A stretch of 64,000 nucleotides of DNA from Cytophagaceae bacterium (GTDB lineage Bacteria > Bacteroidota > Bacteroidia > Cytophagales > Spirosomataceae), in assembly GCA_016722655.1 (NCBI GenBank), contig JADKIR010000004.1:1595183-1659182 (forward strand), written 5' to 3'. The notes under the pieces are model-generated. The model saw nothing but the letters and a program-made list of their open reading frames with translations. It was not told where the DNA came from and ran no database searches. Below are positions 13,610-32,482 of the stretch, piece after piece. The stretch's first letter is position 1. Every line of letters starts with the position of its first letter. The position numbers were made by a program, and so were the translations under genes.

Positions 13610-13646
13610 GAAAACCAAAAAAGCAGCGATTTTGGGTCGCTGCTTT
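13610..13646 (-). terminator. rho-independent terminator; left copy of a 37-nt direct repeat (36/37 identical to 17569-17605)
   Basis: gaaaaccaaaaaagcagcgattttgggtcgctgcttt. Stem agcagcga (13622-13629) pairs with tcgctgct (13637-13644). On the minus strand a U-run follows. Confidence 0.8.
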
Positions 13647-13675
13647 TCTTCTAATGAAATAATTTGCAATAATTA

Positions 13676-14149
13676 TCAGATCCCATTTTTTACCAATTTT
13701 CCATCTTCATATTTCCCGATTTCTGATTTCAAAATGGGAGAACTTGCTCCACCTTCAAGATAAATAATCAAAGTTTGCCAATTTTTAGGCACAAATTCAG
13801 TGTAAATCTTATAGTCTTTAAAGTTTCCAAGTCCAATATTTAATTCTTTGTCGTTTGAAAGCGTAACAATAAGCTTTATTGTACCTTCACCAGTTTTTGA
13901 ATTTTCTTTGATTTTTAGTGGGGTTGGCTCACTAACATTTATCATTTTTAAGTTCTCAAAAACGAGTACCGGGCTTCCATTGCTTTTTAAGGTATTGAGA
14001 TTCACATCCTCGATATAAATCTTAAAATCCTTAATTTCAATATTTTCATTGTTGTTGAAAATAAAATTTGGCTCCGATGTCGGCTCAATTAATTTTGAGC
14101 AGGAAGAAATTAAAATTAGTAATGGGAAAAATTTGGCAATTGTTTTCAT
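13676..14149 (-). CDS. hypothetical lipoprotein (157 aa)
   Basis: Signal peptide with a lipobox (LILISSC). AT-rich. No recognisable domain. Confidence 0.6.
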   Translation of the reverse strand: MKTIAKFFPLLILISSCSKLIEPTSEPNFIFNNNENIEIKDFKIYIEDVNLNTLKSNGSPVLVFENLKMINVSEPTPLKIKENSKTGEGTIKLIVTLSNDKELNIGLGNFKDYKIYTEFVPKNWQTLIIYLEGGASSPILKSEIGKYEDGKLVKNGI

Positions 14150-14230
14150 ATTGCAGAGATATAAAATTTTCTAATTATTTAAAATATAAGTTAATTGTAT
14201 AGAGTTTTTCTGAATTGTTTTCCGTAAAAA

Positions 14231-14707
14231 CTACCCCGCAACCATCGTATTTTTATCCTGATTTAATAGTGCTTCCCCATCCAAATAAATCAGATAATTG
14301 AGTTGTTTTTCAGGATTATAGAATTCAGGTAAAATTGATTTGAAAAAAAGATTATTGGTCGATTTTTGACCATTTGAATATTCCGATTGGGTATTGTTGA
14401 CACTATAATAGAAATAAGTTTTTAAGTTATCAATCGATAATTCTCCTTGTCTGGGTAAATTTTGACTTAATTTCTCTCCAAAATATAAGGTTGATCTGTT
14501 AAATATCAAGGTTGAGTCGGCTCCATTTTTAGCACCATTTTTTATCACAATTTTTGAAATATCAAAAGTCGTTTCTTCCAGATTTCTGATAAATTTTGGA
14601 TCCTTTTTTTCACAGGAAAACATATTCAAAAGCAATATTAAATATAAAAGGTTTTTCAAACTACTGTTAATTTTAAGCTTAATTATATTTTTTAAAACCT
14701 TTTCCAT
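14231..14707 (-). CDS. hypothetical lipoprotein (158 aa)
   Basis: Lipobox-like LLLNMFSC. AT-rich. Abuts the upstream gene, with its start at 14707 and that gene's stop at 14709. Confidence 0.55.
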   Translation of the reverse strand: MEKVLKNIIKLKINSSLKNLLYLILLLNMFSCEKKDPKFIRNLEETTFDISKIVIKNGAKNGADSTLIFNRSTLYFGEKLSQNLPRQGELSIDNLKTYFYYSVNNTQSEYSNGQKSTNNLFFKSILPEFYNPEKQLNYLIYLDGEALLNQDKNTMVAG

Positions 14708-14708
14708 A

Positions 14709-15299
14709 TCAATTTTTTAATATCGGACAAGTTAGCTTTAAAGAACTTATCAGTTCTGTATTTAATTTACTTTTATATATCGAAAAATTACCCCATATAG
14801 AAAAGTGGGCTGTAGTACAAAGATTTAAATTCAAATCACCATGGAAAACACCAGATGATTCTTTGTTAAATCTTCCTGACTCCATGGCATATTGCAAATT
14901 AGTGGGAGCGTTGGGGTCTATTAAATGTCTAATTCCACCATTTGAGTATTTTTGATAAAGTTGCAGCCCATAACCAAATCCGATATTTATTTTAGATTTA
15001 AAGACAGATTGATTAAGATTCAATACAAGTTTGGTTGAATTTATTTGATTTTCATTATTTACAAAATTGGGTACTACTTCTTCAGTTTTTATTGAGGATC
15101 TGGAATTTTGTATTTGAATACCTCCATAAGTGTTTTTTGCAATTTTTCTGTTGTAAGTACATCCAAAGGCATTTCCCCATAAATCTCCAGAGGTGAAGAA
15201 AGTTTTGCCAAATTGAAATTGGAAATTTCTTTCCTGGCCATTAGAAAATAAAGGGTTAAAAATCAAAACTATTAAAAGGGTATATAATACTTTCATCAT
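14709..15299 (-). CDS. hypothetical exported protein (196 aa), possibly a small beta-barrel
   Basis: Signal peptide MMKVLYTLLIVLIFNPLFSNGQ. Has alternating aromatic/Gly-rich segments. No C-terminal Phe. Confidence 0.55.
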   Translation of the reverse strand: MMKVLYTLLIVLIFNPLFSNGQERNFQFQFGKTFFTSGDLWGNAFGCTYNRKIAKNTYGGIQIQNSRSSIKTEEVVPNFVNNENQINSTKLVLNLNQSVFKSKINIGFGYGLQLYQKYSNGGIRHLIDPNAPTNLQYAMESGRFNKESSGVFHGDLNLNLCTTAHFSIWGNFSIYKSKLNTELISSLKLTCPILKN

Positions 15300-15324
15300 T
15301 ATTTCGATTCTTTTTTAATTAAAT

Positions 15325-15345
15325 GGGAGGGTATTAAACCCTCCC
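15325..15345 (-). other. strong intercistronic hairpin inside the island operon
   Basis: gggagggt (15325-15332), loop attaa, accctccc (15338-15345). This is a perfect 8-bp GC-rich stem between the 466-aa and 196-aa genes. Confidence 0.6.
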
Positions 15346-15353
15346 GTAATTTT

Positions 15354-16754
15354 TTATTCTTTTAGTTTAAATTTAAAAATTGTAGATTCGTAAATGGTAT
15401 CAAGTGGGTCCCAATAAAATACATCAGTGTCTGCAATTAAATCCTTGCCCGGATCACTTACAATTGAAAAACCTATGCCTGCTTTTATAGTACCAGCTGA
15501 ACTTGTTGACAAACCTAATTTATCTTCCCAACCTGCGTTTACTGTGAAAGTTCCATTATCATTCCAATCTTCCTCCCTCCAGTTGAACCTAAGAACAGTG
15601 TTAGCTGAACTCCAAGATGTCAAAAGAGGAACCGTATAAACCCAGTATTTATCTGTTATAGCATTTCTTGTAGAAGGTTCTAATTTTGGTGTTGTATATG
15701 ATACTCCAGTAGTTCCATTTGGAGAAACTACAACTCTTAATCTCATCTCTGGAGCACCAGAGGCCCATTTTTCCACCACCTTTAAAGCATCATCATTATT
15801 GAATTTCATACTTGTAACTTTTAGAGGGTCTCCATCTTTTCTGGGAGAAGCAGTTGAAGCAATTAAACTACTCCATGCTGAAGCTACACCTGAAACTATA
15901 CTTCTAATTTTGAAAAAATATTTTTGGCCAGCAGTTAAGTTTGTTACATATAAAAAATTTGTATTTGATGCGGTAGTAGAGAGCAAAGTAAATGCTGAAC
16001 CTGTGCTATAATATATTTCATAGGCACTTTCACCTGTAACATCAAGCCATGTTAAATAAAAACTATTTGGCGTTGTATGTTGCAAACCAAGACCGGTAGG
16101 TACGTTATAAACTCTCCCATTTGCGTTTTTCTTTTTTTTGTCGTTAGTTAATTCAATTCTTTCATTAAAACCGACTACTATCACTGGCTGGTCTGGATTT
16201 ACATTGTGATTAATTAAAGCTTTAATCTTACCTTTTCCATAACAAATTAAATAATCTTGGTTATGGTGGTCCAAAGCGGTAACCAATATTTTATGCTTTT
16301 CAACATCCCATTTTTCAATATTTATTGGAATTGAAATGTTTAGTTTGGGATAGGCTAGAATATATTTTTCAAGCCTTCCCCTGAATGATATATCGTCAGT
16401 TGAAATTAATTGCAAGAACCTAGAATTTTCGCTTACCAAACTTGATAAAATAATATCGAAATCACCATCCTTCTTAAGCAATGCATTTGATTTCAAAAGT
16501 TGTCTAAGTTCAACATTATCAAGATTTTCTGCGATATTTTTTGCAATATCATTTAACATGATATTTATTTCCGGTGTAAAATCTGAATTATTATTTATAG
16601 CCCTTAAAGATTTTTGATTATAAGGAATAACCGTGCTTGGAACCAAAAAGTCATCAGTTGTTTTTATATAATTTTGTGGAAGTTTTTCGTCATCATTTTT
16701 ACAAGAAAAAGTAATACTTGTTAAAATGGCAATTGACAATACAATTTTTTTCAT
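15354..16754 (-). CDS. hypothetical lipoprotein with a fibronectin type III-like domain (466 aa)
   Basis: Lipobox ILTSITFSC. The central segment PTGLGLQHTTPNSFYLTWLDVTGESAYEIYYSTG...LTAGQKYFFKIRSI has the Fn3 pattern. Confidence 0.65.
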   Translation of the reverse strand: MKKIVLSIAILTSITFSCKNDDEKLPQNYIKTTDDFLVPSTVIPYNQKSLRAINNNSDFTPEINIMLNDIAKNIAENLDNVELRQLLKSNALLKKDGDFDIILSSLVSENSRFLQLISTDDISFRGRLEKYILAYPKLNISIPINIEKWDVEKHKILVTALDHHNQDYLICYGKGKIKALINHNVNPDQPVIVVGFNERIELTNDKKKKNANGRVYNVPTGLGLQHTTPNSFYLTWLDVTGESAYEIYYSTGSAFTLLSTTASNTNFLYVTNLTAGQKYFFKIRSIVSGVASAWSSLIASTASPRKDGDPLKVTSMKFNNDDALKVVEKWASGAPEMRLRVVVSPNGTTGVSYTTPKLEPSTRNAITDKYWVYTVPLLTSWSSANTVLRFNWREEDWNDNGTFTVNAGWEDKLGLSTSSAGTIKAGIGFSIVSDPGKDLIADTDVFYWDPLDTIYESTIFKFKLKE

Positions 16755-16921
16755 AACTTTATGTGTTTAATTGTTAAAAATTAAATTTTCAAAGCCCTCT
16801 GTATCTGCCAGGATTTTTGGGGGCTTTGTTGTATCAAAGGTCTGAAAGGTTTTTGAGAAAAAAAATCGTCATTTGTCAAGAAAAAAATATACAAATGGCA
16901 ATGTATGTAGCTACATTATTC

Positions 16922-17521
16922 CTACTCTTTTTTGGTTTTTATAGCCTTCCCTCTTACACGACTGAGATTTGTGGCCGTGGTGTTGAGATAAGAGGCTATC
17001 ATATACAATGGTACTTTCTGGCTTAAACCGGGGTGCATGTTGTCGAGGTAAATAAGTCTGTCCTCTACTTTTCTAAGCTGATGCATACGGTTTCGATATT
17101 CGAGCTGTAAAAGATATTTACGGTAGATACTCAAAATGTGTGGGAATAATTCAGCGTTTTGACTTATTAACTTCTCAAACAGTGCTTTACTAATACTGCG
17201 TGCATTTACCTTTGTTTCTGCCCTGATATTGCTGTGTGAAGCTATTTGCAATTCAAAACTTTCGACCTGATAAATCCATTCATTTTCCGGAAGTATCCAA
17301 TAGGTTATTACTTTTTCAGATTCTGGTCCAGATTCAGATTCTGTGTCCGAAAATTCTCTCACTACACCGCTTTCAATAAAGTATATTTTGTCAGAGACTT
17401 CGCCTGTTTTTAGAAGATATTCATGTATGTCAAATTCTTGAATTTCAAATGATTGATCAATGATGTGTGACAATTCAGAAGAAATTGCAATGTGTTTTTT
17501 GAGATATTCTGTTAGCTGCAT
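16922..17521 (-). CDS. Crp/Fnr family transcriptional regulator (cNMP-binding domain plus C-terminal HTH)
   Basis: 199 aa. Has an IYFIESGVVREF beta-roll segment and a C-terminal IASYLNTTATNLSRVR HTH. The architecture matches the paralogue at 54589-55167. Confidence 0.75.
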   Translation of the reverse strand: MQLTEYLKKHIAISSELSHIIDQSFEIQEFDIHEYLLKTGEVSDKIYFIESGVVREFSDTESESGPESEKVITYWILPENEWIYQVESFELQIASHSNIRAETKVNARSISKALFEKLISQNAELFPHILSIYRKYLLQLEYRNRMHQLRKVEDRLIYLDNMHPGLSQKVPLYMIASYLNTTATNLSRVRGKAIKTKKE

Positions 17522-17568
17522 ATTTTGATTGTGCCTTTTATAATTTATGCAATTTAGAAAAAAATTCA

Positions 17569-17605
17569 GAAAACAAAAAAAGCAGCGATTTTGGGTCGCT
17601 GCTTT
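17569..17605 (-). terminator. rho-independent terminator of the TolC-adaptor operon; right copy of the 37-nt direct repeat
   Basis: gaaaacaaaaaaagcagcgattttgggtcgctgcttt. Stem 17581-17588 pairs with 17596-17603. Confidence 0.8.
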
Positions 17606-17625: not shown

Positions 17626-19023
17626 TTATTCTTCTTTCTTCTTTTCTTCTTTTTTCTTGAGGGCTACTTTGTCACCGTCTTTGAGTTTTTTCGATACTTC
17701 AAGGAAAGGACCCGAGATGATCTCTTCGCCGGCTTTTAGACCTGAAACAATTTCTATCGATCCTGCACCAGTATCGGTGATTCCGGTTTTTACTTCACGT
17801 TTTTTAGCTACGCCTTTGTCGTTGACAAACACGATTTCTTTTGGCACTTCTTTTTTCACCGGCTCGTTGTCCACTGCTCCTAAGCCCATTCCCTCGTCGC
17901 CATCTTTTTCTTTATCTGATTTTTTGTTTTCTACCCGGGTGGTTACAGCCGAGATAGGCACCGAAAGCACCCCGGCCTTATTGTTAGTCACGATTTCCAC
18001 CGTAGCAGTCATTCCCGGTTTAAACGGATACTTACGGCCTTTTTTGTAATCGATCAACTCACGGTATGAGCTGGGAAGGATTTTGATTCTCACTTCAAAC
18101 TCTGTCACCGACTCAGTCGAGTTGCTGGCAGCTGCAGTCAATGATCCACCCGAACCATTTGCCGTATTGGCGATTTGGGTCACGATGCCTTTAAATTTCT
18201 TGCCCGACGAGGCATAAGAATCCACATCTACTATTACGGTATCGGTCAAACCAACCCTTACAATATCGTTTTCATTTACATTTACCCTTACCTCCATGTT
18301 GTTGAGGTTGGCTATTCTCAACATTTCGGTTCCGGCCATTTGCGAGGTACCAACTACCCTTTCTCCCAATTCTACGGCCAGTTTCGACACGATACCTGTC
18401 ATCGGTGCATAGATATTAGTTTTTCTAAGGTTTTCAGAGGCATCTTTCAATGCAGCCTGCGAGCTTTTTATGCCATATTGAGCAGCCTGATAATTGGCTT
18501 TTGCAGCTTCCAGATCCTGTTTGGCAATCTTCATGTTGGTTTCGGTAGTCTCAAATTCCGACTGAGAAATCACTTTTTCTTCTAATAGTTTTTTCTGACG
18601 GTTATATTCTACCTGAGTTCTCAAGAGCTGAGATTCCGCCCTGGCGATAGATGATTTTGATTGCTCTGCCGAAGCCTGTGACTGGTTTACACCTGCTTTA
18701 AATCTTTCTACAACCGACACATAGTTTTCAGGCTGGATTTTTAACAAGAGCTGTCCTTTTTGCACAGAATCCCCTTCTTTCACGTAAAGAGCGATGATTT
18801 CACCCGGTACATCAGGAGTGATTTTTACTTCAACTTCGGGTTGAATTTTACCTGATGCCGACACCGTTTCGGTCAGATTACCTTTCACTACTTTGGTAAG
18901 TTCTACTTCTGTGGGTTTCTCACTGTTGATCCAACCCGCTTTTTTTCCGATAATTATAAAAAGTATGAGGGCAACCAAAATACCTCCAAGTATCCACCAT
19001 ATTTTTTTTGACTTCTTGTTCAT
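17626..19023 (-). CDS. efflux transporter periplasmic adaptor subunit (HlyD/MacA-like membrane fusion protein)
   Basis: 465 aa. Has an N-terminal TM anchor, a lipoyl-like motif (GQLLLKIQPE), a long coiled-coil and a beta-barrel/MP domain, plus a Lys/Glu-rich tail. Confidence 0.8.
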   Translation of the reverse strand: MNKKSKKIWWILGGILVALILFIIIGKKAGWINSEKPTEVELTKVVKGNLTETVSASGKIQPEVEVKITPDVPGEIIALYVKEGDSVQKGQLLLKIQPENYVSVVERFKAGVNQSQASAEQSKSSIARAESQLLRTQVEYNRQKKLLEEKVISQSEFETTETNMKIAKQDLEAAKANYQAAQYGIKSSQAALKDASENLRKTNIYAPMTGIVSKLAVELGERVVGTSQMAGTEMLRIANLNNMEVRVNVNENDIVRVGLTDTVIVDVDSYASSGKKFKGIVTQIANTANGSGGSLTAAASNSTESVTEFEVRIKILPSSYRELIDYKKGRKYPFKPGMTATVEIVTNNKAGVLSVPISAVTTRVENKKSDKEKDGDEGMGLGAVDNEPVKKEVPKEIVFVNDKGVAKKREVKTGITDTGAGSIEIVSGLKAGEEIISGPFLEVSKKLKDGDKVALKKKEEKKKEE

Positions 19024-19069: not shown

Positions 19070-20530
19070 TTATAGCTCCAAAGGTCTGTTTTGATAGAAA
19101 TCCAATACTTTTATCCTGAAAATATAATCGTATTTGGCTACCACAAGGTTGCTTTTTGCTCGATCCAGGTTGGTTTTAGCAAGATTATAATCCATAAAAT
19201 TATTTGATCCAGCACTATAGCGGGTCTCTATCGCTTTGAATGATTTTTCGAGAGCATTGACTTGAATCTGGGTTGCCGAAAATCTCTTTTGAGCATTGAG
19301 CATATTGATATAAGCCTGATCAATGTTTTGTTTTATCTGCAATTTGGTACTTTGATTCTGAATATCCGTTTGTTTTTTCTGAATCGTTGCCGCCTGTGTC
19401 TGGTATTTCTGGTTGTAGCCATTAAATATCGGTATTCTCAACGATAACCCCACATTCAAGTTTTGGTTATTTCCTAACTGTTTGAAATAGTTAATGTTTT
19501 CCGAAGTATAGGTAGTTTGTGGAAAATTTATCACAAACGGGATGGTTTGTCCCTGAAACTCAGCCGAAACCGGAATTGGAGAGCTTGTTGAACCACTTGG
19601 AGTCAAAGTTTTTGCAACAGAAGAATATGCCGTACCCCAGCTTGTGGAGGCAGAAAGTGTTGGTAGCCCCAAGCTCTTGGCAATCGCAATATTCCTGTCC
19701 GCAACCTTCATTCTTATTTCTCCGGCTTTAATTTCAGGCAAGTAGCCCAGTGCATTTTCATACACCTGATTGGCAGTTTCACCATATTGTATTAAATTCG
19801 GGTCAGGCACATTAATTCTTTCAGCTTTTATTACCATTTCTGTTGGAGCATTCATGGCTTGTTTTAGCGTCAAAAGTGCCGACTCGTGATTGTTTTTGGC
19901 ATTGAGGAGGCTCAGCTCATCGTTGGCACGCTGTGCTTCCAGGTCAAAAAGATTGGTTTCGGGAACGGTACCCGACCGTACCAATTTTTCCATTCTTTCA
20001 AACTGAAAATTGGTCACATCCAGTTGTTTTTGAGCCACTTCTATCAGGTCTTCTGTCGAAAGGGCATTGAGGTATGCCAAGGCCACCTGAAGTGAAACGT
20101 TGTTTCTCATGGTATTCACGTCCATTAGCAGGGCTTCAAGCGTCAATTTTGCTCTTTCTACCGTGTTTTTGTTCCTGAAACCATCGTAAACAGGCATATT
20201 TAGCCCTACCCCTACATTATTGGTTCCGATAGTTTGAGTTACGATTCCGTTGGTAAAAGGATCCACGTTACGACCTGCATTGCCGTTGAGGTTAAATTGA
20301 CCGTTGGCCGTTGGATATTTGGCCATTTTAGCCTGATCCAGCGTGACCATTCCTGATTCTACCGCCACCTGTGTTTGTTGCATGTTCAGGTTATTTTTCA
20401 GGGCATAGTCCACGCACTCTCTCAACGAAAGCACCTGTGCCTGACCCGAAGATCCCGAAACTTTGGTTTGGCCCATGGCATACACCGAGGAAACCAAAAT
20501 CAATGCGGCTATTTTAAAATTGAAATTCAT
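19070..20530 (-). CDS. TolC family outer membrane efflux protein
   Basis: 486 aa with a signal peptide and two OEP repeats (LSLRECVDYALKNNLNMQ..., coiled-coil pattern). Confidence 0.8.
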   Translation of the reverse strand: MNFNFKIAALILVSSVYAMGQTKVSGSSGQAQVLSLRECVDYALKNNLNMQQTQVAVESGMVTLDQAKMAKYPTANGQFNLNGNAGRNVDPFTNGIVTQTIGTNNVGVGLNMPVYDGFRNKNTVERAKLTLEALLMDVNTMRNNVSLQVALAYLNALSTEDLIEVAQKQLDVTNFQFERMEKLVRSGTVPETNLFDLEAQRANDELSLLNAKNNHESALLTLKQAMNAPTEMVIKAERINVPDPNLIQYGETANQVYENALGYLPEIKAGEIRMKVADRNIAIAKSLGLPTLSASTSWGTAYSSVAKTLTPSGSTSSPIPVSAEFQGQTIPFVINFPQTTYTSENINYFKQLGNNQNLNVGLSLRIPIFNGYNQKYQTQAATIQKKQTDIQNQSTKLQIKQNIDQAYINMLNAQKRFSATQIQVNALEKSFKAIETRYSAGSNNFMDYNLAKTNLDRAKSNLVVAKYDYIFRIKVLDFYQNRPLEL

Positions 20531-20792: not shown

Positions 20793-20811
20793 TTTCGTTT
20801 TCTTACAGGCA

Positions 20812-21677
20812 TTATGATTCTTTCTCTTTCACCGACTGAAAAGGCGTTTGTCCAAATTTCTCCTTGTAGCCTTTGATAAAATGTGATACGCTTTCATAAC
20901 CGATACTTTCCGAAACCTGCTCTACATTGCCCAGCTTGTTTTTCAACATAAAAGCCGCATGTTCCAGTTTTTTGTCTTTGATATATTTCCCTGGGGACTG
21001 GCTAAATTTTTCAATAAAATCTCTTTTAAACGACGAAAGGCTTCGGCCAGAAAGTCTCGCCAGCTCGTTGATGTTGAGGGTTTTACGGCAAATGTGTCCA
21101 CAATATAGTCCAGATCGGCTTTTTGTCCGGCATATATCGAGAAAAGCAATTGCCTGAGTTGCTGATTTTTGTCAAATTCCAAAAGATGTAATAATAGCTC
21201 CTGTAGTTTTAGTTTTAAAATCTGATTATGATACCGGCTCTGGGTTTTGAAATAGGGCAGGAGTGAGTCTATATATTTCCCGAATGCCTCATTGGATTGC
21301 AGCACCAGCAACCAGGAGTTTTGAGTTGCGGCAGGCTGTGTATGGGTCTGAAATATTTCCAGATGTTGACTTACAAATTCCTTGAGGAGCTTTTCTTCGA
21401 AAAAAAACACCAGGCTTTTATAAGATTCGTTGATAGACTCCGACATCAGATAGTAGCCCCGCTTTACAAAAAGCACATCGCCTTTTTTTACCCGCACCTC
21501 AGAATTGGAGCTACTGAAAATCTTGTCTCCTTCAAGTATGTACAGTACAGCATTTTCTTCAAAAAACACATCGTTTTTGGAAGGATAAATATTGCTCCTG
21601 TAAGCCACAAAAGTGCTCTCCTGAATCTTCAGGGACTCAAATTGGTCGGCTTTTATTTCAGAGGGTACACGGAGCAT
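20812..21677 (-). pseudogene. AraC family transcriptional regulator, disrupted by a frameshift
   Basis: The N-terminal cupin-like domain is read from 21677 in one frame and ends in nonsense (..AVKPSTSTSWRDFLAEAF..*). The complete AraC HTH domain (RKTLNINELARLSGRSLSSFKRDFIEKFSQSPGKYIKDKKLEHAAFMLKN...GYESVSHFIKGYKEKFGQTPFQ) lies in a different frame and ends at TAA 20812-20814. The frames swap near 21087-21130. Confidence 0.8.
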
Positions 21678-21678
21678 A
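21636..21678. repeat. 43-nt direct repeat, copy A (covers the AraC start codon and first 14 codons)
   Basis: ctcaaattggtcggcttttatttcagagggtacacggagcata, 41/43 identical to 22466-22508. Confidence 0.85.
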
Positions 21679-21770
21679 GAAAGTAGGATTATTATTTTTT
21701 AAAACTGAAAAATAAAAAATTTGAATTTTCTTTTTTAGGGAGATTAGAAATAGGGTGATTTAATTTGAGC

Positions 21771-22220
21771 CTAATTCTTTTTACTGAGATTCTTAATGTC
21801 AATTTTGTCTTGAGGCCTTCCAGAAGCTTTTTTGTTTGCAATCAAATGCTTTAAATTAACAAAATTGATATTTAAACCTTCAACAGCGATGGTCTCTTTA
21901 TTGTCATAGGCTTCCTTAAAGTCAATACCATCTACAGAAGTTAAAATGTCTATTCTAAGTGGAGGATAACCAATTTGGTTAATAATATTTTCTTTTAAAA
22001 AATCTTGTTTTTGAAATGGTAAAGAAGCAAAACCAAAATCTCTTAAAACTAGTAACATTTTTTCTGAATTAGACTCAGAGATTCCAATCCAGATGTCTAA
22101 ATCACCTGTATATCTAGGTCTGCCGTGAAAAGCCATGGCATAGCCACCCACAACTAAATATTCGACAGAGAATTGATTTAGTAAAGATATGAAGTCTTCA
22201 AAATCCTTTTCTAAAGTCAT
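21771..22220 (-). CDS. small pol-beta-fold nucleotidyltransferase-like protein (149 aa), toxin-antitoxin-like
   Basis: Has VVGGYAMAFHG...RYTGDLDIWI, a G[GS]...DxD minimal NTase signature. The size and layout resemble stand-alone DUF6036-type nucleotidyltransferases (family recalled, not searched). Confidence 0.6.
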   Translation of the reverse strand: MTLEKDFEDFISLLNQFSVEYLVVGGYAMAFHGRPRYTGDLDIWIGISESNSEKMLLVLRDFGFASLPFQKQDFLKENIINQIGYPPLRIDILTSVDGIDFKEAYDNKETIAVEGLNINFVNLKHLIANKKASGRPQDKIDIKNLSKKN

Positions 22221-22408
22221 TTCATATGAAAAGTTTTTGTATAAGTTTTATCCATTTTCTGGCCTGAATTTACATTTTGTTTTATCAAAATAAATAAAGA
22301 TTCAAGCCTTTCTTTCTTTGTTTTTCCTTGCCAATAATCAAAATCCAATGATTCTTGATCGCTTTTTAAGGATAAACTCCTTCCTTCTAAAATTATTTTT
22401 CTATCCAT
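22217..22408 (-). CDS. small partner protein (63 aa), putative antitoxin-like
   Basis: Its stop overlaps the NTase start by 4 nt (ATGA at 22217-22220). No recognisable domain. Confidence 0.45.
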   Translation of the reverse strand: MDRKIILEGRSLSLKSDQESLDFDYWQGKTKKERLESLFILIKQNVNSGQKMDKTYTKTFHMK

Positions 22409-22465
22409 ATTTTTGAACTAGAACCTCAAACTAAACAAATTTACATTTTCTTCTTAAAAAAATAG

Positions 22466-22508
22466 CTCAAACTGGTCGGCTTTTATTTCTGAGGGTACAC
22501 GGAGCATA
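22466..22508. repeat. 43-nt direct repeat, copy B (orphan duplicate of the AraC 5' end)
   Basis: ctcaaactggtcggcttttatttctgagggtacacggagcata. On the minus strand it encodes MLRVPSEIKADQFE and then terminates after 3 more codons. Confidence 0.85.
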
Positions 22509-22597: not shown

Positions 22598-25063
22598 ATG
22601 AAGAAATTATTCACCATTTTGTTTTTTATTCTTCCCACATTTTTGCTTGCCCAAACTCAGGTAACTGATTTCCAGACCATTAGCAAGTCTCCAATTGATT
22701 TCAAAATTTTGGGAAAATCTGGCAACAAAATATTTGTTTGGGCAGATAAACCCGAAGGAGCGGATGAAATTTTGGTCAAGGATATTTCAGGTGATAAATT
22801 CAAAGTTTTCTATAATCTGAAGAACGAAGAGTGGATAAACAGCTTTGATTTTTCTGGTAAAACGAAATATATCTCAGTTTTCGATTCAGACCAAAGACAC
22901 ATTCTAAAACTCAATTCTGATAACTCTGGATTTGAAAAAATCAAATTGCCTGACAACACTGATCAGGTTTATTCGCTGGCAGATAAATTGTTTTTTACAA
23001 AGAATAGAAGGTTATTCTTGTTGGAGAAAGTTAAATATTTGTACCAATTCAAAATTTTTAAAAATGAATATAAATTAATTCAAAAACTGAATGACAATCA
23101 GATTCTTATAAAATATGATGATTACTCAGTTGGAATTGTGGGTAGCAATCTGGCAGAAAAAACACTAAATCCAGGGGTCCAATTTAATGGGTTTTCCTTT
23201 GAAAATGAGCAATTGATTTTTTACTCTCCGGAGGAAATCGTGATTTGCGATAATTTTTTCAATATTATTACTAAGAAAAAAGTAAACTTTTATGAAAAGC
23301 CTAAAAATGCTTATTTCAAAGTATTCACTGATAAGAATTACATTATATCAGTAGGGTATAAATTTAAACTCCATAATTATTACACCATCGAGCCTAACTT
23401 TATTGTAAGTAAATCATTTATTTCTGAGGATAGATTGATGGTTTTAAATGATAGCGGCTATGTTACGAGAGGAGAGCTTTCTATTGATGGAGGACCTACT
23501 AATTTTAAGAAAGTTTCTAATTTCCTTTCGATTGGCTCCGAAGTTTATTTCTTATCATTCAATTATGGTAATTCTTCCAGCAATGGCTTGTTTCTTAAAG
23601 TTTTAGATCATGAACAATTTAAGATTAAAAGCTATAAAATTTCTGATTCACTTTTCAAATCTCAATCTTACCATGGAAAACAGCAAATAGGATCTTTGGT
23701 CAATATTGGTAATCAGCTTGTTATATTTTCTAATAGCTCACCTCTACCACTAGCATTATATGACTTAACAAAAAAAGAATTAGTAAAATCAGATATTAAA
23801 ACTCAAAACTATGTAGGAAGTATCAACCAAAATGAGGCTTCTTTTTTGGTTAAAGAAGGGGAGACTATTGTGGAATATGACCTATCGGCCATAACAAAAA
23901 ATACGTTTTTAAATGAGAATATAAGCAAATGGGAATCTGGAATTAAAAAGCATTTTAAAGTGGCTGACGATCTTATATTTTTAGTAGAAAAGCCTGATAA
24001 ATCAAGTTTTTTGGCAACTATAAAAGATAATAAGCCACATATTTTACTTAATACTAATGTATTCTCAAATGGATTTAACTTATATGCCGACTGGAAGATT
24101 GATAAATTTCGAAATTTTTTAGTATTTCAAATAGGTCAGGAGATTAAAGGATTTGAATACGATAACCAGAAAAATCTATTAACAGAAATAAATATCGGAA
24201 ATGGAAATTACTTTGCAGAGGTAGGCAAATATTATGATAAATTTTGGTTTCAGCGTAATTCCCAATTATTGTCAATTGATGAAAATCTTCATGTAAATAT
24301 TTTAAGAAATTTTTCCGGTTACCCCAAAGTTTTAAACATTTTTGAAAACAACGATGTGCTTTATTCCACTGATACTTCCTTGAATTATTTCTCCAATGAT
24401 AATAAAAAGGATTTAAAACTTTCTGATGGCTATACAGAAATATTAAGTATTGAAAAAAATAAAGTATTATATAAAGCCGGAAGGAAAATTATGCAATTTA
24501 TCCCTTCCTCAGGAGCTTTGACTGTGAGCTATTCATTTCCGAATAATTTTTTTGATGTGATGTCAACGAGTAATTATAGACTTATTGGAGATTACTATAG
24601 TTTTGATTATAAGATAATTGTCAATCAAACGGCTCAGGTTTATAATTTTGAGAAAGAGTATATGCCTTATAAAGTCATTGAAGGAAATTTTCTATTTTTT
24701 GTTAAAAACAACATAAGTAAGCTTAATATTCTAAATCTGAAAACGCAATCCAAAAAGTCAATAGATTTACCAAAATACCCCATTGAAACGAGTCTTATTG
24801 CAAGCAATGATACATTTGCACTGGTTAGGATTGACAAAGAGGTTTATTCAATTAATCTTTTGGAAAATGATTTGAAATTATCACCATTGGATTTAGATGA
24901 AAATTGCATTCAGTCAAATTTTGGGTCACTTTATCTTTTTTCTGATAAATCAGAATTTTTAATTTTTGATATTAAAACGGGAAAAATTGTCAGGCATAAA
25001 CTCAATCTTTCTGGGTTTGGTTTTAATCAATATTTATCAAAAAAAATGGGAAATATTTATTAG
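22598..25063 (+). CDS. hypothetical secreted protein (821 aa), probably the N-terminal part of a split T9SS cargo gene
   Basis: Signal peptide MKKLFTILFFILPTFLLAQ. Very AT-rich. Ends at TAG 25061-25063, in the same frame as the next ORF. Confidence 0.6.
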   Translation: MKKLFTILFFILPTFLLAQTQVTDFQTISKSPIDFKILGKSGNKIFVWADKPEGADEILVKDISGDKFKVFYNLKNEEWINSFDFSGKTKYISVFDSDQRHILKLNSDNSGFEKIKLPDNTDQVYSLADKLFFTKNRRLFLLEKVKYLYQFKIFKNEYKLIQKLNDNQILIKYDDYSVGIVGSNLAEKTLNPGVQFNGFSFENEQLIFYSPEEIVICDNFFNIITKKKVNFYEKPKNAYFKVFTDKNYIISVGYKFKLHNYYTIEPNFIVSKSFISEDRLMVLNDSGYVTRGELSIDGGPTNFKKVSNFLSIGSEVYFLSFNYGNSSSNGLFLKVLDHEQFKIKSYKISDSLFKSQSYHGKQQIGSLVNIGNQLVIFSNSSPLPLALYDLTKKELVKSDIKTQNYVGSINQNEASFLVKEGETIVEYDLSAITKNTFLNENISKWESGIKKHFKVADDLIFLVEKPDKSSFLATIKDNKPHILLNTNVFSNGFNLYADWKIDKFRNFLVFQIGQEIKGFEYDNQKNLLTEINIGNGNYFAEVGKYYDKFWFQRNSQLLSIDENLHVNILRNFSGYPKVLNIFENNDVLYSTDTSLNYFSNDNKKDLKLSDGYTEILSIEKNKVLYKAGRKIMQFIPSSGALTVSYSFPNNFFDVMSTSNYRLIGDYYSFDYKIIVNQTAQVYNFEKEYMPYKVIEGNFLFFVKNNISKLNILNLKTQSKKSIDLPKYPIETSLIASNDTFALVRIDKEVYSINLLENDLKLSPLDLDENCIQSNFGSLYLFSDKSEFLIFDIKTGKIVRHKLNLSGFGFNQYLSKKMGNIY

Positions 25064-25096
25064 TTAAGATTCACAAATGATTCAAATCAAAAGAAC

Positions 25097-25645
25097 TTGA
25101 TTTTGAATGAAAATTTAGAAGTGATTTCTGAAAGTACTGGTGAATATTCGTACATCACTCAAAATCCTATTATCAGCTTTCAGGGCAAAAAATATTTTAT
25201 TAACTCAGATCCATTTTTTGGAACTGAAATCTGGACTTCAGATGGTACTTCGGCAGGAACCAGAATTTTTTCAGATATTTTTTCTGGTAAAAATAGCTCC
25301 TCTCCTCAACAAATATTTGAAAATGATGGAAAACTGTACGCTTTAGCAACTGGTAATCCTTCCGGCGTACAGATTTGGGAACTGAATAGCGACCAGAAAC
25401 TGGAAAAGGAAGAACCAAAAATTATAGTTTTTCCTAACCCCATGGGAAATGCATTTTCAATTTATATCAATAAAGTTGGTAAGGAATTTCATTTTAATAT
25501 TTTCGATAGTAATGGCAAAATTTATAAAAAAGAGAAATTTTATAAAAATGGCCAAAATTTTGACGCAAGTGATATTCCGTCTGGATTATATTTTTTGAAA
25601 AGTGAGGATGGGCAATTCTTACAGAAAATATTAATAATGAAATAA
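25097..25645 (+). CDS. ELWxxDGT-repeat fragment plus T9SS C-terminal sorting domain (182 aa from a TTG start)
   Basis: Has the FFGTEIWTSDGTSAGT motif. The C-terminal ~75 aa (IVFPNPMGNAFSIYINK...GLYFLKSEDGQFLQKILIMK) resemble a Por/T9SS type A sorting tail. No signal peptide. Same frame as 22598-25063. Confidence 0.5.
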   Translation: MILNENLEVISESTGEYSYITQNPIISFQGKKYFINSDPFFGTEIWTSDGTSAGTRIFSDIFSGKNSSSPQQIFENDGKLYALATGNPSGVQIWELNSDQKLEKEEPKIIVFPNPMGNAFSIYINKVGKEFHFNIFDSNGKIYKKEKFYKNGQNFDASDIPSGLYFLKSEDGQFLQKILIMK

Positions 25646-28509: not shown

Positions 28510-28516
28510 TTTTAAA

Positions 28517-28549
28517 TAAAAAAAAAGAGGAGTTTTGGCTCCTCTTTTT
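28517..28549. terminator. bidirectional terminator (DUF4382 gene / tsf)
   Basis: A-run, stem agaggag (28526-28532) pairing with ctcctct (28539-28545), then a T-run. Confidence 0.75.
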
Positions 28550-28568
28550 AATATTTATTGGATAGGAA

Positions 28569-29402
28569 TTACCCAATCACAACTCTCTTAAATGAAGCGA
28601 TTTTCGCACCTTTTACGGTTTTCTCAACCAAAGCAGCAATAGTCAAAGAAGGATCTTTTACAAACTCCTGGTTCAACAATGTTTGCTCTTTGTAGAATTT
28701 GTTCAGTTTACCCATTGCGATTTTCTCAAGCATAGCTTCAGGTTTTCCTTCCTGACGAGCCTGATCTTTACCAATTTCGATTTCTTTTTCTACAATAGCA
28801 GGATCAACATCACCTTTGTCAAGACCAACAGGCTTCATAGCAACGATTTGCATCGCAACGTCTTTTCCAAGATCATGTACATCAGCACCGCCAATGTTTT
28901 CGAAAGCTACAATTCCGGCTGCTTTTTTGTTGCTATGAATATAAGCCACAACTTGCTCGCCTTCAACATGGTGGAAAGCAGATACTACTATTTTCTCACC
29001 GATTTTACCAACCAATTCAGTGATATTTTCCTGAACTGATTTGCCGTTTTCCAGATTAAGACCTAAAAGTGTCTCTGCGTCTTTTGCATGGTGTTTTACA
29101 CCAGCTTGCAAGATTTCAGCAGCAAGGTTTTTGAAGTCTTCAACGTTTGATACCGGCTCAGTTTCACATGCAAAAGCCAATACTTTGGCACTTTTTCCGC
29201 TATCACTTACATCTACCAATACCACTCCTTCCGAAGTTTCATTATCTGCACGTTTGGCAGCCACTTTCTGACCTGCTTTACGCAATATTTCAACGGCTTT
29301 TTCAAAATCACCCTCAGCTTCAGTAAGGGCTTTTTTGCAATCCATCATTCCGGCTCCTGTTAATTGACGTAGTTTGTTTACGTCAGCTGCAGTAATATTC
29401 AT
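28569..29402 (-). CDS. tsf: translation elongation factor Ts
   Basis: 277 aa with the UBA-like N-terminus MNITAADVNKLRQLTGAGMMDCKKALTEAEGDFEKAVEILRK. Confidence 0.95.
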   Translation of the reverse strand: MNITAADVNKLRQLTGAGMMDCKKALTEAEGDFEKAVEILRKAGQKVAAKRADNETSEGVVLVDVSDSGKSAKVLAFACETEPVSNVEDFKNLAAEILQAGVKHHAKDAETLLGLNLENGKSVQENITELVGKIGEKIVVSAFHHVEGEQVVAYIHSNKKAAGIVAFENIGGADVHDLGKDVAMQIVAMKPVGLDKGDVDPAIVEKEIEIGKDQARQEGKPEAMLEKIAMGKLNKFYKEQTLLNQEFVKDPSLTIAALVEKTVKGAKIASFKRVVIG

Positions 29403-29452
29403 TTTTATATTATTTTTATGTAAATAAATTTTATGTCTTGTTTAAAACGAAC

Positions 29453-29497
29453 AGCCCAAAGCGACGCTTCGGGCTATTCAAGTATTATTTCGAAGCG
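29453..29497 (-). promoter_or_regulatory. rpsB-tsf intercistronic alternative hairpins (attenuator-like)
   Basis: The minus-strand RNA reads CGCUUCG...CCCGAAGCG.CGCUUUGGG. Segment 2 can pair with either segment 1 or segment 3. The 2:3 hairpin is followed by CUGUUCGUUUU. Confidence 0.4.
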
Positions 29498-29507
29498 AAA
29501 TATTTTC

Positions 29508-30455
29508 TTATGCTTCTGCTTCCTCTGTTGAGGCTTCAGCTGCAGGAGCTTCAGGAGCGGCTTCTTCTGCTACTGGAGCAGCTTCAACTACAACTTCTTC
29601 TACAACCGGGGCCGCTTCAGCTTCAGGAGCTGCATCAGCAGTTTTTACTCTTTTTCTTTTACCACCTTCTGAAGATTCTTCACCTCTGTTTACTACTTCT
29701 CTGGCAGTATCAACGGCTCTTTTAGCATCTTCTTCTTCCTGAAGAGCGGCATTTTCTTTGTCAGTTTTTCTTTCAAGAATACCTTCTTCGATAGCCTTAC
29801 CGATAGCAAGTGTAATCAATGAAATCGATTTGTAAGCATCATCGTTAGATGGTATAGCAAAGTCAACGATTTCAGGATTTGAATTGGTATCGCACATGGC
29901 AACAACAGGAATACCCAATCTTTTGGCTTCTGCTATAGCAAGGTGCTCACGTTTGATATCTACTACAAATATGGCAGCAGGAAGTCTTGAAAGGTCAGCT
30001 ACACCACCCAACAATTTTTCCAATTTGGCTTTTTCACGACCCAGCATCAACTTTTCGCGTTTTGCGATGTTGCCGGCAGTGGCCTCGTCAGAAAGCATTT
30101 TGTCGATGTTGTTCATCTTCTTCAATGATTTCTTGATAGTAGTGAAGTTGGTCAACATACCACCCAACCATCTTTCAGTTACGAAAGGCATTTTAAGACG
30201 GTTAGCTTCTTCTGATACTATTTCCTGAGCTTGTTTTTTGGTAGCTACAAACATCACTTTACGTCCTGAGCGAACTACGCTTTTAACGAATGCCTGAGCG
30301 GCAGCGATGGCTTCCAATGATTGATTGAGGTCAATGATGTGAATCCCGTTTTTCTCCATGAAGATATAAGGAGCCATTCTTGGATCCCATTTACGGGTCA
30401 GGTGACCAAAGTGTACGCCTGCATCTAAGAGGTCTTTGTACTGAATTTGTGCCAT
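29508..30455 (-). CDS. rpsB: 30S ribosomal protein S2 with an acidic Ala/Glu/Pro-rich C-terminal tail
   Basis: The ATG at 30455 gives MAQIQYKDLLDAGVHFGHLTRKWDPRM. The ORF-track start at 30506 is an upstream extension. Confidence 0.95.
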   Translation of the reverse strand: MAQIQYKDLLDAGVHFGHLTRKWDPRMAPYIFMEKNGIHIIDLNQSLEAIAAAQAFVKSVVRSGRKVMFVATKKQAQEIVSEEANRLKMPFVTERWLGGMLTNFTTIKKSLKKMNNIDKMLSDEATAGNIAKREKLMLGREKAKLEKLLGGVADLSRLPAAIFVVDIKREHLAIAEAKRLGIPVVAMCDTNSNPEIVDFAIPSNDDAYKSISLITLAIGKAIEEGILERKTDKENAALQEEEDAKRAVDTAREVVNRGEESSEGGKRKRVKTADAAPEAEAAPVVEEVVVEAAPVAEEAAPEAPAAEASTEEAEA

Positions 30456-30558
30456 TTCGTTTGTTTTAATTGTAAAAAAATTTATTGAATTTGCAGCACA
30501 GCACATCGGGCACGATAAGTACTGTCTGGACGGATATAATTAATAATGGGCTAATTTG

Positions 30559-30666
30559 TTAATGTGCTAATTAAATTTACAACCTTTTGGTTTTTAGTTA
30601 ATTAGAGCAATGTGCCTCATTCAAGAAAATTAGCACATTACCGCATTGCCACATTAGCACATTAAT
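30559..30666 (-). promoter_or_regulatory. rpsB upstream region with an 11-nt motif present three times
   Basis: aatgtgctaat at 30561-30571, and its reverse complement attagcacatt at 30629-30639 and 30653-30663. A partial copy aatgtgcc lies at 30609-30616. Confidence 0.45.
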
Positions 30667-30670
30667 AATA

Positions 30671-31057
30671 TTAACGTTTCGAGAACTGGAATCTCTTACG
30701 TGCTTTGCGGCGACCGTATTTTTTACGCTCAACCATACGCGAATCACGGGTTAAGAATCCTTCTTTTTTCAACGGAGGGCGGTTTTCAGTGTCTGCTTCG
30801 CACAATGCACGTGCGATTGCCATTCTTATGGCTTCAGCCTGACCTGCAATACCACCACCTCTTACGTTTACTTTCAAATCAAATTTTCCTGTAGCATTTA
30901 CTGTATCAAATGCCTGATTGAAAATAATCTGAAGTACTTCGGTAGGGAAGTAGTTTGACAATTCACGACCGTTTACCTTCACGTCACCTGTACCAGGTTT
31001 CATGTAAACACGGGCAACGGCTGTTTTTCTTCTACCTACGGTATTAATTACCTGCAT
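30671..31057 (-). CDS. rpsI: 30S ribosomal protein S9
   Basis: 128 aa, ending in the canonical ...[13 protein letters not shown]. Confidence 0.95.
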
Positions 31058-31082
31058 TTTATTTTAATTTTTAAAATTCTAA

Positions 31083-31529
31083 TTAATTGATTTCGAGAGT
31101 GGTTGGTTGTTGAGCCTGATGAGGGTGCTCACCGCCTTCATATACATAAAGGTTGGTGTAAAGTTTGCTGCCCAATCTGTTTTTTGGAAGCATACCTTTC
31201 ACTGCCATCTCCACTACTTTTCTACCATCCTTAGCCATAAGCTCTTTAGGAGACGCGAAACGCTGTCCACCCGGATGACCTGTGTGACGAGTATAAACTT
31301 TATCAGTCATTTTTTTACCGGTAAGTCTGATCTTCTCGGCATTGATGATGATTACGTTATCTCCACAGTCAACGTTTGGTGTGTATGATGTTTTGTTTTT
31401 TCCTTGCAGGATGTTGGCCACCTGACTAGACAAACGACCCAAAATTTTATTTGAGGCATCTACTACTACCCACTTTTTCTCGACGGTCTTGGCATTAGCC
31501 GAAATCGTTCTATAACTTAATTGATCCAC
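31083..31529 (-). CDS. rplM: 50S ribosomal protein L13 (GTG start)
   Basis: 148 aa, (M)DQLSYRTISANAKTVEKKWVVVDASNKILGRLSSQVA. The start codon is GTG (plus-strand cac at 31527-31529). Confidence 0.95.
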   Translation of the reverse strand: MDQLSYRTISANAKTVEKKWVVVDASNKILGRLSSQVANILQGKNKTSYTPNVDCGDNVIIINAEKIRLTGKKMTDKVYTRHTGHPGGQRFASPKELMAKDGRKVVEMAVKGMLPKNRLGSKLYTNLYVYEGGEHPHQAQQPTTLEIN

Positions 31530-31813
31530 GATTGCAATTTTTTATACGTTAATTAATCAATTTAAAAACACAATTCGCCGGGCATACCCAAATAGCTTTC
31601 GACTTTTTATGTTTTCTTTTCTAATTATAAGGTGCTTAAAAAACACAAAAATCAGGATCGGAACTTCCTCATTTCTTATAACTTACATAGCCTTTTTGGA
31701 GCGGGCAGCACCAAGAAGGCGGTATTTGGGGCTGCAAAGATAGAAAAATGTTTTCTTATTACAAATAATCACTCTAAAATTCTTAAGAAAATTTCAGGAC
31801 ATAATCATTTGGT

Positions 31814-31855
31814 AATAAAACATTAAGCCCGGCACTCTTTCAAGGCCGGGCTTAA
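31814..31855 (-). terminator. terminator hairpin; copy A of a 42-nt direct repeat (41/42 identical to 32441-32482)
   Basis: aataaaacattaagcccggcactctttcaaggccgggcttaa. 9-bp stem aagcccggc (31825-31833) pairs with gccgggctt (31845-31853). Confidence 0.75.
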
Positions 31856-31875
31856 AAGATTTTTACTATCAGCAT

Positions 31876-32361
31876 TTATTTATTAATTACTTCAATTTCA
31901 GTTATTCGAAATGGTAAAGCACTGTCATAAGATACTGGAGTATTGGTTGGTTCTTCCGGTTTGTCCCAGGTGTTTTTGAGTTTTTCGAAATTATCTTTTG
32001 AAATATATGTATTTCCACTAACCCTCACTAATGTATTGCTTTTAAGATTTGCAGGTAAATTACAAGGCCTAAAACAACATAATCCACGTTTTTCTTTATA
32101 TCCTGGAATGCTAAATGAAACTCTTGAAGACTTTTCTGACCAATTTAGGGTATCTCGCAATGACAATTCATAGGCTTTTGTTTCATCATCTCCGCTTATC
32201 CAATATTCCCCATTTTTTACTGTAACCAGCACCACGGGATTTTCCGGATCACATATAGAAAATTCTTTGAGTATTTTCTTATCTTCAGAACAAGATAGAG
32301 AAATGATTAACACAAAAGAGGCGAAAAAAATATGTGATTTTATTTTCGGATTTGATTTCAT
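31876..32361 (-). CDS. hypothetical lipoprotein (161 aa)
   Basis: Signal peptide with lipobox (LIISLSC). AT-rich. No recognisable domain. Confidence 0.6.
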   Translation of the reverse strand: MKSNPKIKSHIFFASFVLIISLSCSEDKKILKEFSICDPENPVVLVTVKNGEYWISGDDETKAYELSLRDTLNWSEKSSRVSFSIPGYKEKRGLCCFRPCNLPANLKSNTLVRVSGNTYISKDNFEKLKNTWDKPEEPTNTPVSYDSALPFRITEIEVINK

Positions 32362-32440
32362 AAGTTGTTTATATTTAATTATTTGTTAAAAATATGTATG
32401 AATATTATAGTAAGCAACAAATAATTATTTTACGGTTGGA

Positions 32441-32482
32441 AATAAAACAATAAGCCCGGCACTCTTTCAAGGCCGGGCTTAA
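32441..32482 (-). terminator. terminator of the leuA-like gene; copy B of the 42-nt direct repeat
   Basis: aataaaacaataagcccggcactctttcaaggccgggcttaa. Stem 32452-32460 pairs with 32472-32480. Confidence 0.75.

Follow-up and report, generated by a model that had tools for sequence, protein, structure and literature searches.

How do small accessory cassettes enter and leave a bacterial genome when no recombinase is recognized in them or around them? Small islets without mobile-element genes account for a large share of strain-level gene content in bacteria; to our knowledge, their entry and exit are poorly documented, above all in Bacteroidota. The question is raised by a 64,000-nucleotide (64-kilobase, kb) stretch of a Cytophagaceae bacterium of the Spirosomataceae (assembly GCA_016722655.1, contig JADKIR010000004.1, positions 1,595,183 to 1,659,182; hereafter the window), in which an earlier note, made from the sequence alone, had pointed to three AT-rich blocks within 19 kb, each bounded by a pair of direct repeats. 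We found that the repeats of each pair are two copies of one end of a host gene. Our analysis points, with slightly better than even confidence, to cassettes without a recombinase that occupy slots at host gene ends, having arrived by homology from a related genome and been reshuffled by general recombination. Within this genome, the scans for recombinases and repeats covered the window; alleles were compared among assembled contigs (NCBI, ENA, and Logan), and L-numbers denote contigs of relatives. The three sites comprise the following features, with lengths in nucleotides (nt) or amino acids (aa):

13610..13646, minus strand: distal copy of repeat X1, a terminator copy after cargo 1 and upstream of a 1038-aa gene
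13647..17568, minus strand: cargo 1, 3922 nt, GC 0.31, five genes (Crp-like regulator, 16922-17521; fn3 lipoprotein, 15354-16754; OMP-like (outer membrane protein) gene product of 196 aa, 14709-15299; lipoproteins, 14231-14707 and 13676-14149)
17569..17605, minus strand: proximal copy of X1, the intrinsic terminator of an hlyD-like MFP (membrane fusion protein) gene, made up of a hairpin, a U-tract, and 6 nt
17626..19023, minus strand: the hlyD-like MFP gene, a conserved host gene whose terminator is X1; an OEP (outer membrane efflux protein) gene lies at 19070-20530
20943-21677, minus strand: araC-like open reading frame (ORF), 244 aa in the window, where it is probably frameshifted, and 288 aa in other conspecific assemblies
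21636..21678, minus strand: gene copy of repeat X2, the true araC-like start, position -1 to +42
21679..22465, minus strand: cargo 2, 787 nt, GC 0.28, a toxin-antitoxin-like pair (63-aa gene, 22217-22408; DUF6036-like nucleotidyltransferase (NTase) of 149 aa, 21771-22220) with a promoter motif of its own, TAAATTTG
22466..22508, minus strand: upstream copy of X2, an orphan araC-like fragment from position -1 to codon 14, with a stop three codons later
31809..31855, minus strand: distal copy of repeat X3, followed by the conserved leader of rplM (31083-31529)
31856..32435, minus strand: cargo 3, 580 nt, GC 0.30, one 161-aa ORFan lipoprotein gene (31876-32361)
32436..32482, minus strand: proximal copy of X3, the intrinsic terminator of a leuA-like gene (32502-33665)

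The two copies are 37 nt long with one mismatch (X1), 43 nt with two mismatches (X2), and 47 nt with two mismatches (X3). All three pairs are present where the earlier note had placed them, save that the third, given there as 42 nt, begins 5 nt earlier. Apart from an AT-rich tandem repeat, these are the only high-identity direct repeats of at least 28 nt in the window, and each repeat core has exactly two copies there (chance expectation, 0). X1 and X3 are intrinsic terminators of host genes, each with a strong hairpin (-13.4 and -22 kcal/mol, z about -4 to -5) ahead of its U-tract, and X2 is a gene start without secondary structure; the three sequences are unrelated, and the genes concerned lie on the minus strand at all three sites. 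A hairpin-specific mechanism was rejected, since X2 is unstructured. No known RNA family or tRNA was found at the repeats, the tRNAs of the window sitting at 58-61 kb.

The GC content within the pairs (0.31, 0.28, and 0.30 for cargos 1 to 3) compares with ∼0.39-0.41 in the surroundings, and about eight of the 64 1-kb bins of the window are as AT-rich as the cargo. The description given in the earlier note, of AT-rich cargo between copies of local host sequence that differ from site to site (two terminators and a gene 5′ end, which proves to span 14 codons), is borne out. It had also considered that the repeats might belong to a high-copy family, of which we see no sign: X1, X2, and X3 each occur twice in 64 kb and, in relatives, at the orthologous locus only, so that on this scale they do not behave as a dispersed family like repetitive extragenic palindromic (REP) sequences or miniature inverted-repeat transposable elements (MITEs). 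The structure of the window is found again in at least 10 independent assemblies from NCBI, ENA, and Logan.

Repeat-bounded architecture of this kind, free of recombinase genes, recurs in other Spirosomataceae and in unrelated metagenome contigs. The distance from a repeat border to the hairpin or stop codon varies there, and repeat lengths range from 27 to ∼150 nt. Five examples are:

L030: repeat of ∼150 nt, the 3′ end of an Rrf2 gene with its terminator; cargo, a PIN toxin-antitoxin pair and a protein of the type IX secretion system (T9SS)
L027: repeat of 38 nt, the 3′ end of a gene; cargo, an AAA_14 ATPase gene
L064 (Aquirufa avitistagni OSTEICH-129V): nearly perfect repeat of ∼97 nt, a tRNA end with a terminator; cargo, three genes (putative CMD-like, MerR-like regulator, and SDR-like dehydrogenase)
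L148: repeat of ∼89 nt, the 3′ end of cysS; cargo, four genes including an NTase pair
L167: repeat of 57 nt, the 5′ end of a gene; cargo, several genes including an NTase pair

Where the repeats overlap coding sequence, the two copies differ in the manner of two alleles of a functional gene. Across five such repeats, 15 of 19 differences are of the synonymous kind, compared with a neutral expectation of 5.3, and none of 20,000 simulations reached 15; the reading frame and the stop codons are kept. Both differences between the X2 copies of the window are synonymous. In L112, the orphan copy of X2 begins ATG TTA AGA and the gene copy ATG CTC CGA, both encoding MLR, and the TTA/CTA AGA variant is a natural araC start in Lacihabitans. 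Nine of the 11 differences at the cysS 3′ end in L148 are synonymous-like, a change of TAA to TAG among them, as are both differences at the Rrf2 3′ end in L030. The pair in L027 is less clear-cut, with two conservative replacements and a stop retained as TGA versus TAG. The differences also crowd at one end of the repeat: L148 has 41 identical nucleotides and then 11 differences in 48 nt, and the L112 repeat has three differences in its first 9 nt, followed by 36 identical nucleotides.

This pattern bears on the idea that the insertion duplicated its own target, either through a staggered break of ∼40 nt that was filled in around captured DNA or through a template switch at a terminator-stalled fork (microhomology-mediated break-induced replication, MMBIR, or fork stalling and template switching, FoSTeS), the polymerase copying foreign DNA and re-entering upstream of its exit point. 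Such a process needs no recombinase and would explain why the repeats are local host sequence and of similar sizes here (37, 43, and 47 nt); two of the three repeats are, moreover, strong hairpins able to stall forks. Both copies should then be recipient-derived, yet the coding differences are mostly synonymous and clustered at one end. The araC repeat is unstructured, repeat sizes elsewhere run from 27 to ∼150 nt, a tract of high similarity between lineages begins inside a repeat (see below), and the X3 copies that precede a cassette differ consistently from the terminal copy in their tails, in all alleles and both lineages. We consider a duplicated target improbable, and the template switch or gap repair offered in the earlier note, which likewise predicts recipient-derived copies, fits poorly with allelic differences that cluster at repeat ends.

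The most complete series of alleles is seen at site 3, where we compared assemblies with an identical RplM protein and ∼99% identical flanks. Three contigs (L101, L102, and L104) carry an empty allele with exactly one X3 copy; one of them comes from a k127 assembly, and k127 cannot jump a 47-nt repeat. There are also the one-cassette allele of the window type, a two-gene form (L099, L103, and L106), and, in a sister lineage (L107-L109), the array leuA-X3-cassette-X3-cassette-X3, in which the cassettes are paralogous. This series is the product expected of unequal crossing-over between repeat copies. An assembly artefact was ruled out by the many independent assemblies together with the empty allele from the k127 assembly. 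The cargo-3 protein is an ORFan known from two clusters only, both of this lineage, and no source for it was found outside this lineage. Beside the site, the 280 nt between X3 and rplM (window 31530-31808) are conserved as far as Lacihabitans and contain the motif CTATCTTTGCAGCCCCAAATACCGC; Rfam gives no match for them, and they could represent a leader or promoter, as yet undescribed, for the ribosomal-protein operon.

Slot 1 shows exchange of cargo. Both X1 copies are kept throughout. Between them lie five genes in the window but three in L007 and a single one, encoding a distant homologue of 202 aa, in L095, a contig of a sister lineage. In strain L007, the middle three cargo-1 genes (466, 196, and 158 aa) are swapped for one 203-aa gene, the borders of the swap within cargo 1 (L007:4844-5523 versus L001:12202-14871) being sharp and without repeats. 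The slot-1 proteins of 196, 202, and 203 aa are distant homologues, with 26-38% identity. At the allele level, the contigs thus record loss, gain of arrays, and exchange through the repeat copies.

The closest named relatives are the Spirosomataceae Lacihabitans, Leadbetterella, and isolate RE-19, with 73-81% identity in the MFP. Gene order in these related genera is amidohydrolase-araC-oep-hlyD-(one terminator)-gpsA, free of cargo, and cargo 1 is not found in them. Since related genera are without them, cargo 1, cargo 2, and two neighbouring features are additions at insertion hot spots; these two features are:

10443..13559, minus strand: accessory gene of 1038 aa, not in related genera and without bounding repeats
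22598..25645, plus strand: accessory block p821/p182, genes of 821 aa and 182 aa (T9SS sorting tail), GC 0.27-0.32, without flanking repeats

Between lineages, sequence identity jumps at the repeats. L112, which belongs to a sister lineage, and the window are ∼84% identical in the DUF4382 and amidohydrolase genes and 95-99% identical in cargo 2, and the similar tract starts within the orphan X2 copy and runs ∼200 nt into araC while decaying. L095 and the window share the distal X1 copy in full (37/37) and 90-97% nucleotide identity in the 1038-aa gene, against ∼83% in oep and hlyD. Because of these jumps, we infer that the cassettes moved between lineages after divergence of the core, with borders at the repeats. 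Among the 23 contigs returned by an exact-protein look-up with cargo 2, the context was one and the same; there was no circle and no other location.

These jumps in identity are difficult to reconcile with old, static structures, that is, with repeat pairs that arose once by a rare accident and whose copies are kept alike by selection, as working terminators, and by gene conversion, only deletion and divergence in situ being at work now. The occupation of all three slots in sister lineages too would follow from this, as would a cargo 3 known from this lineage only and ∼200-aa slot-1 proteins that share just 26-38% identity between alleles. No empty allele was found for block 1 or block 2, and the two X1 copies are identical to each other in some assemblies (e.g., L005 and L009), which suggests gene conversion. 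The high identities of cargo 2 (95-99%) and the 1038-aa gene (90-97%), compared with 83-84% for the core, indicate instead recent exchange with borders at the repeats, and an accident recurring at three sites within 19 kb, and in further genomes as well, calls for a common cause. We hold a static origin to be quite unlikely.

As the earlier note had it, there is no recombinase in sight: no transposase, integrase, or resolvase Pfam domain was found in any window ORF of at least 150 aa or in any cargo ORF. The best-scoring terminal inverted repeats at the cargo ends were no better than those of shuffled sequences. The cassettes therefore differ from transposons and insertion sequences, having neither a transposase of their own nor inverted repeats that could be acted on in trans, and instead of a fixed-length duplication of recipient sequence they show repeats of varying length whose copies differ like alleles. 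No integrase gene lies inside the cargo of the window or in the analogous cassettes. Integrons are likewise a poor match, as the 64 kb hold no intI/attI and no integrase domain, and in place of attC sites each cassette has a single host sequence repeated on its two sides, X2 being unstructured. The view in the earlier note that neither a single att site nor the usual target-site duplication is involved agrees with repeats that are unrelated to each other, one of them unstructured, and with the lack of transposase, inverted repeats, and integrase. A phage or plasmid vector was also considered and rejected: Viral contigs had no match to X1 or X3, no plasmid matched cargo 1, and no phage matched the cargo-2 NTase. 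Annotation of the cargo for defence systems (PADLOC) gave no match.

Direct repeats at the ends of protein-coding genes do resemble att cores, a trait common to several explanations. The cassettes could be satellites or remnants that lack an integrase, their repeats serving as att sites for tyrosine or serine recombinases encoded elsewhere in the genome or on a helper element. Gene ends are typical integrase targets, and the empty site with exactly one copy and the X-cassette-X-cassette-X array would both be expected. The repeat in L064 abuts a tRNA-Asn gene, a 7-kb island in L067 is enclosed by a classical tRNA-Asn repeat of 47 nt, and the identical core followed by a diverged arm in L148 is reminiscent of attL and attR. 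The window, with three unrelated repeats in 19 kb, one of them without secondary structure, and with cargo down to 580 nt, is a less natural substrate. Neither an integrase nor a remnant of one was found in the 64 kb or in the analogous cassettes, and repeat lengths and borders vary (27 to ∼150 nt). Furthermore, one toxin-antitoxin family uses many host sequences as its repeats and would thus need many integrases. We regard recombination in trans as unlikely on balance.

The near-equal repeat lengths in the window (37-47 nt) are a coincidence, equivalent cassettes elsewhere having repeats of 27 to ∼150 nt, and this lack of a fixed geometry speaks against an enzyme that imposes one. A bolder reading is a dedicated and as yet undescribed insertion system, whose gene would lie elsewhere in the genome or in a phage. 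It would insert cassettes with promoters of their own at the boundaries of transcripts, just past terminators or start codons, and duplicate some 30-150 nt of the target; such a system seems to us very improbable. In a milder version, the copy of a host gene end may be a selected "homing arm," conferring recombinase-free mobility between related species on small, often toxin-antitoxin, cassettes.

The reading that we favour, of homologous arrival and general recombination, would work as follows. Each slot holds cargo between two copies of the host gene's own end, whether terminator or initial codons. The incoming DNA would stem from a related genome, would have the cargo lying beside a piece of the same host gene, and would be integrated by the general recombination machinery of the cell. 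This could happen by a crossover in the conserved gene combined with a second join, of short-homology or illegitimate type, upstream of the donor's insertion point, or by a single crossover of a circularized fragment. Either route would leave the two gene-end copies, one incoming and one resident, on opposite sides of the cargo. Afterwards, unequal crossing-over or slippage between the copies gives precise loss, tandem arrays, and replacement of cargo, as the alleles show. The short copy would also act as a portable homology arm, able to move the cassette between lineages whose upstream context differs, and this would explain the transfer into L112, where the upstream context is different. The earlier note had proposed circular DNA integrated by a single crossover through a short homologous patch. 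A homology route is indeed the best fit, given the allelic copies and the tract that runs from the repeat; in place of a circle, the data are accounted for just as well by a linear fragment that has a single long arm and joins by short homology or illegitimately at its other end. The precise loss that it had predicted is seen at block 3, where conspecific assemblies have an empty site with one copy, and not at blocks 1 and 2.

No flanking repeats accompany the 1038-aa gene, p821/p182, the HigBA-like pair that L112 has at the same place, the ParE pair of L107, or a methyltransferase of Lacihabitans. Repeats therefore go with some insertions and not with all. The repeat-free neighbouring blocks (the first four of these) would fit a second junction of variable position.

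A number of points weigh against this proposal. No empty allele of block 1 or of block 2 was found in the sampled population, and among the assembled contigs we saw no integration event, no circular form, and no donor allele without repeats. The test for allelic differences applies to coding repeats only and not to the terminator repeats X1 and X3, and the bias toward synonymous differences is weaker evidence if one copy stayed functional after a duplication, a case in which ∼60% would be predicted (79% observed). Filled and empty alleles of site 3 show no elevated tract of donor-type single-nucleotide polymorphisms (SNPs) in the anchor gene, and the polymorphism there may consequently reflect deletion only. 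With 37-47 nt of homology, RecA-type recombination would work close to its lower limit, and a recombinase encoded beyond the 64-kb window is possible.

The cargo itself is small, AT-rich, and lineage-specific, and consists of surface lipoproteins, a Crp-like regulator, and a toxin-antitoxin-like pair. The four products of cargo 1 other than the regulator are secreted proteins or lipoproteins. The pair formed by the 63-aa gene and the DUF6036-like NTase is kept as a two-gene module in many unrelated contigs. Eight of 37 loci with a homologue of the cargo-2 NTase are bracketed by a repeat of at least 27 nt, compared with 2.5% of random control windows, a figure that is indicative only, since five of the eight are repeat arrays of unclear nature. 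In L137, L138, L184, L168, and L169, homologues of this NTase stand in arrays with repeats of 40-80 nt every 0.7-1.6 kb, which may be integron-like cassette arrays.

The surroundings of site 2 are variable in other ways. An insertion hot spot separates the amidohydrolase gene from araC: In the window it holds p821/p182, which lies between the amidohydrolase gene and X2 on the strand opposite to its neighbours, and in L112 it holds a HigB/HigA-like pair instead (L112:3000-3712). The araC-like ORF probably has a frameshift near 20940 (region 20811-21677), from a long-read homopolymer error or as a pseudogene; the 821-aa gene is likewise split in L002 and L004. In L095, genes for an IS110-family transposase and an AAA_14/DUF4143 ATPase, together with split helicase genes, take the place of the araC region upstream of oep (L095:3434-7367). 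A gene of the AAA_14 type is also present in the window (50134-51348, minus strand), where a 29-nt AT-rich tandem repeat in three copies (51344-51434) lies directly upstream of it; the same gene type forms the single-gene, repeat-bounded cassette of L027.

Some further insertions were noted in relatives and other contigs. In L107, a cassette of an 84-aa gene and a ParE toxin gene, with its own terminator and no flanking direct repeat, lies between tsf and the DUF4382 gene (L107:9902-10455). L057 has a repeat of ∼30 nt, GGGTTTGGCC...AAAGATACTATT, in at least six copies in 19 kb and in both orientations (11327-12904, and also 864-893, 3624-3652, and 4704-4733). It parts low-GC segments of 0.6-0.9 kb in a genome of GC 0.5, and looks like a dispersed repeat or a cassette array. 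In L053, a direct repeat of 149 nt (11679-11827 and 19886-20034), comprising a promoter region and the first 13 codons of a gene, encloses an 8-kb block whose ORFs, as judged by eye, resemble metal-binding or copper-resistance genes, with no recombinase recognized in the same way.

The earlier note knew of no described mechanism in Bacteroidota that yields this signature. Precedents do exist, as recombinase-less elements between direct repeats and homology-assisted illegitimate recombination have both been described (PMC5426353, PMC7843796, PMC2884548). Unconventional circularizable structures (UCS), in the account of Palmieri et al. (2013) that is relayed in PMC7843796 and PMC5426353, usually have repeats of hundreds of base pairs (bp), often containing genes, and form circles shown by PCR; they are described mostly within resistance elements of Firmicutes and Proteobacteria. 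Like the present blocks, they are recombinase-free, have two direct repeats and accessory cargo, and leave one chromosomal copy upon loss; unlike them, they have longer repeats and demonstrated circles, where we have repeats of 37-47 nt and chromosomal contigs only. The microcin H47 island of Escherichia coli is 13 kb long, and its repeats of 146-148 bp are 77% identical; excision of the island is ascribed to host functions and is RecA-independent, circles of it too have been demonstrated by PCR, and natural strains exist with an empty site and one recombined repeat (PMC5426353). It shares with our blocks the small size, the absence of a recombinase, the imperfect direct repeats, and the natural empty sites, and differs in that its repeats are not obviously the end of a neighbouring gene and that it is a single locus with no recurrent pattern. 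Measured against UCS and H47 together, all three blocks are segments between direct repeats without a recombinase gene, loss that leaves one repeat copy is seen at block 3 and not at blocks 1 and 2, and the repeats of 37-47 nt fall short of the length typical of that kind (>100 bp).

Homology-facilitated illegitimate recombination, or insertion-deletion "at the border" (de Vries and Wackernagel 2002; Prudhomme et al. 2002; discussed in PMC2884548), is known from experiments with three naturally transformable bacteria only, Acinetobacter, Pseudomonas stutzeri, and pneumococcus. It resembles the proposed route in joining an anchor in a conserved gene to a nonhomologous or microhomologous junction with no element-encoded enzyme, and it would duplicate the gene end if the second junction fell upstream of the donor's insertion point. 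Duplications at the flanks are not what is usually reported for it, and a donor tract in the anchor gene is here only suggestive (site 2) or absent (site 3). In E. coli, Staphylococcus aureus, and Streptococcus pyogenes, 10-18% of strain-variable segments are repeat-flanked, many with a deletion allele, and illegitimate or homology-assisted recombination has been proposed for them (Touzain et al. 2010; PMC2884548). Those repeats are mostly <30 bp and the segments mostly <500 bp and within genes, and allelic repeat copies and slot behaviour are not described there.

In cis-mobilizable elements (CIMEs), pseudo-SCC (staphylococcal cassette chromosome) elements, and the cargo arrays of tycheposons, the repeats function as att sites, and the matching recombinase, of a defined family, has its gene close by or on a partner element. 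These share with our loci the order repeat-cargo-repeat-cargo-repeat at a conserved gene end and units that are recombinase-free; they differ from them in that we find three unrelated repeats and no recombinase in 64 kb. In the literature we found nothing specific on a mechanism in Bacteroidota, on cassettes that duplicate terminators, or on toxin-antitoxin cassettes with flanking repeats. By analogy, the present case is best placed as a short-repeat variant of the UCS/H47 kind, built from host gene ends, in Bacteroidota.

The locus offers a full series of alleles, empty, single, in tandem array, and with swapped cargo, on very short repeats made of host gene ends, together with sequence evidence that one repeat copy came from another lineage along with the cargo. 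Should this hold generally, 30-50 nt of a conserved gene end would suffice for transfer of a cassette across species and for its reversible loss, and toxin-antitoxin cargo may stabilize such unstable inserts.

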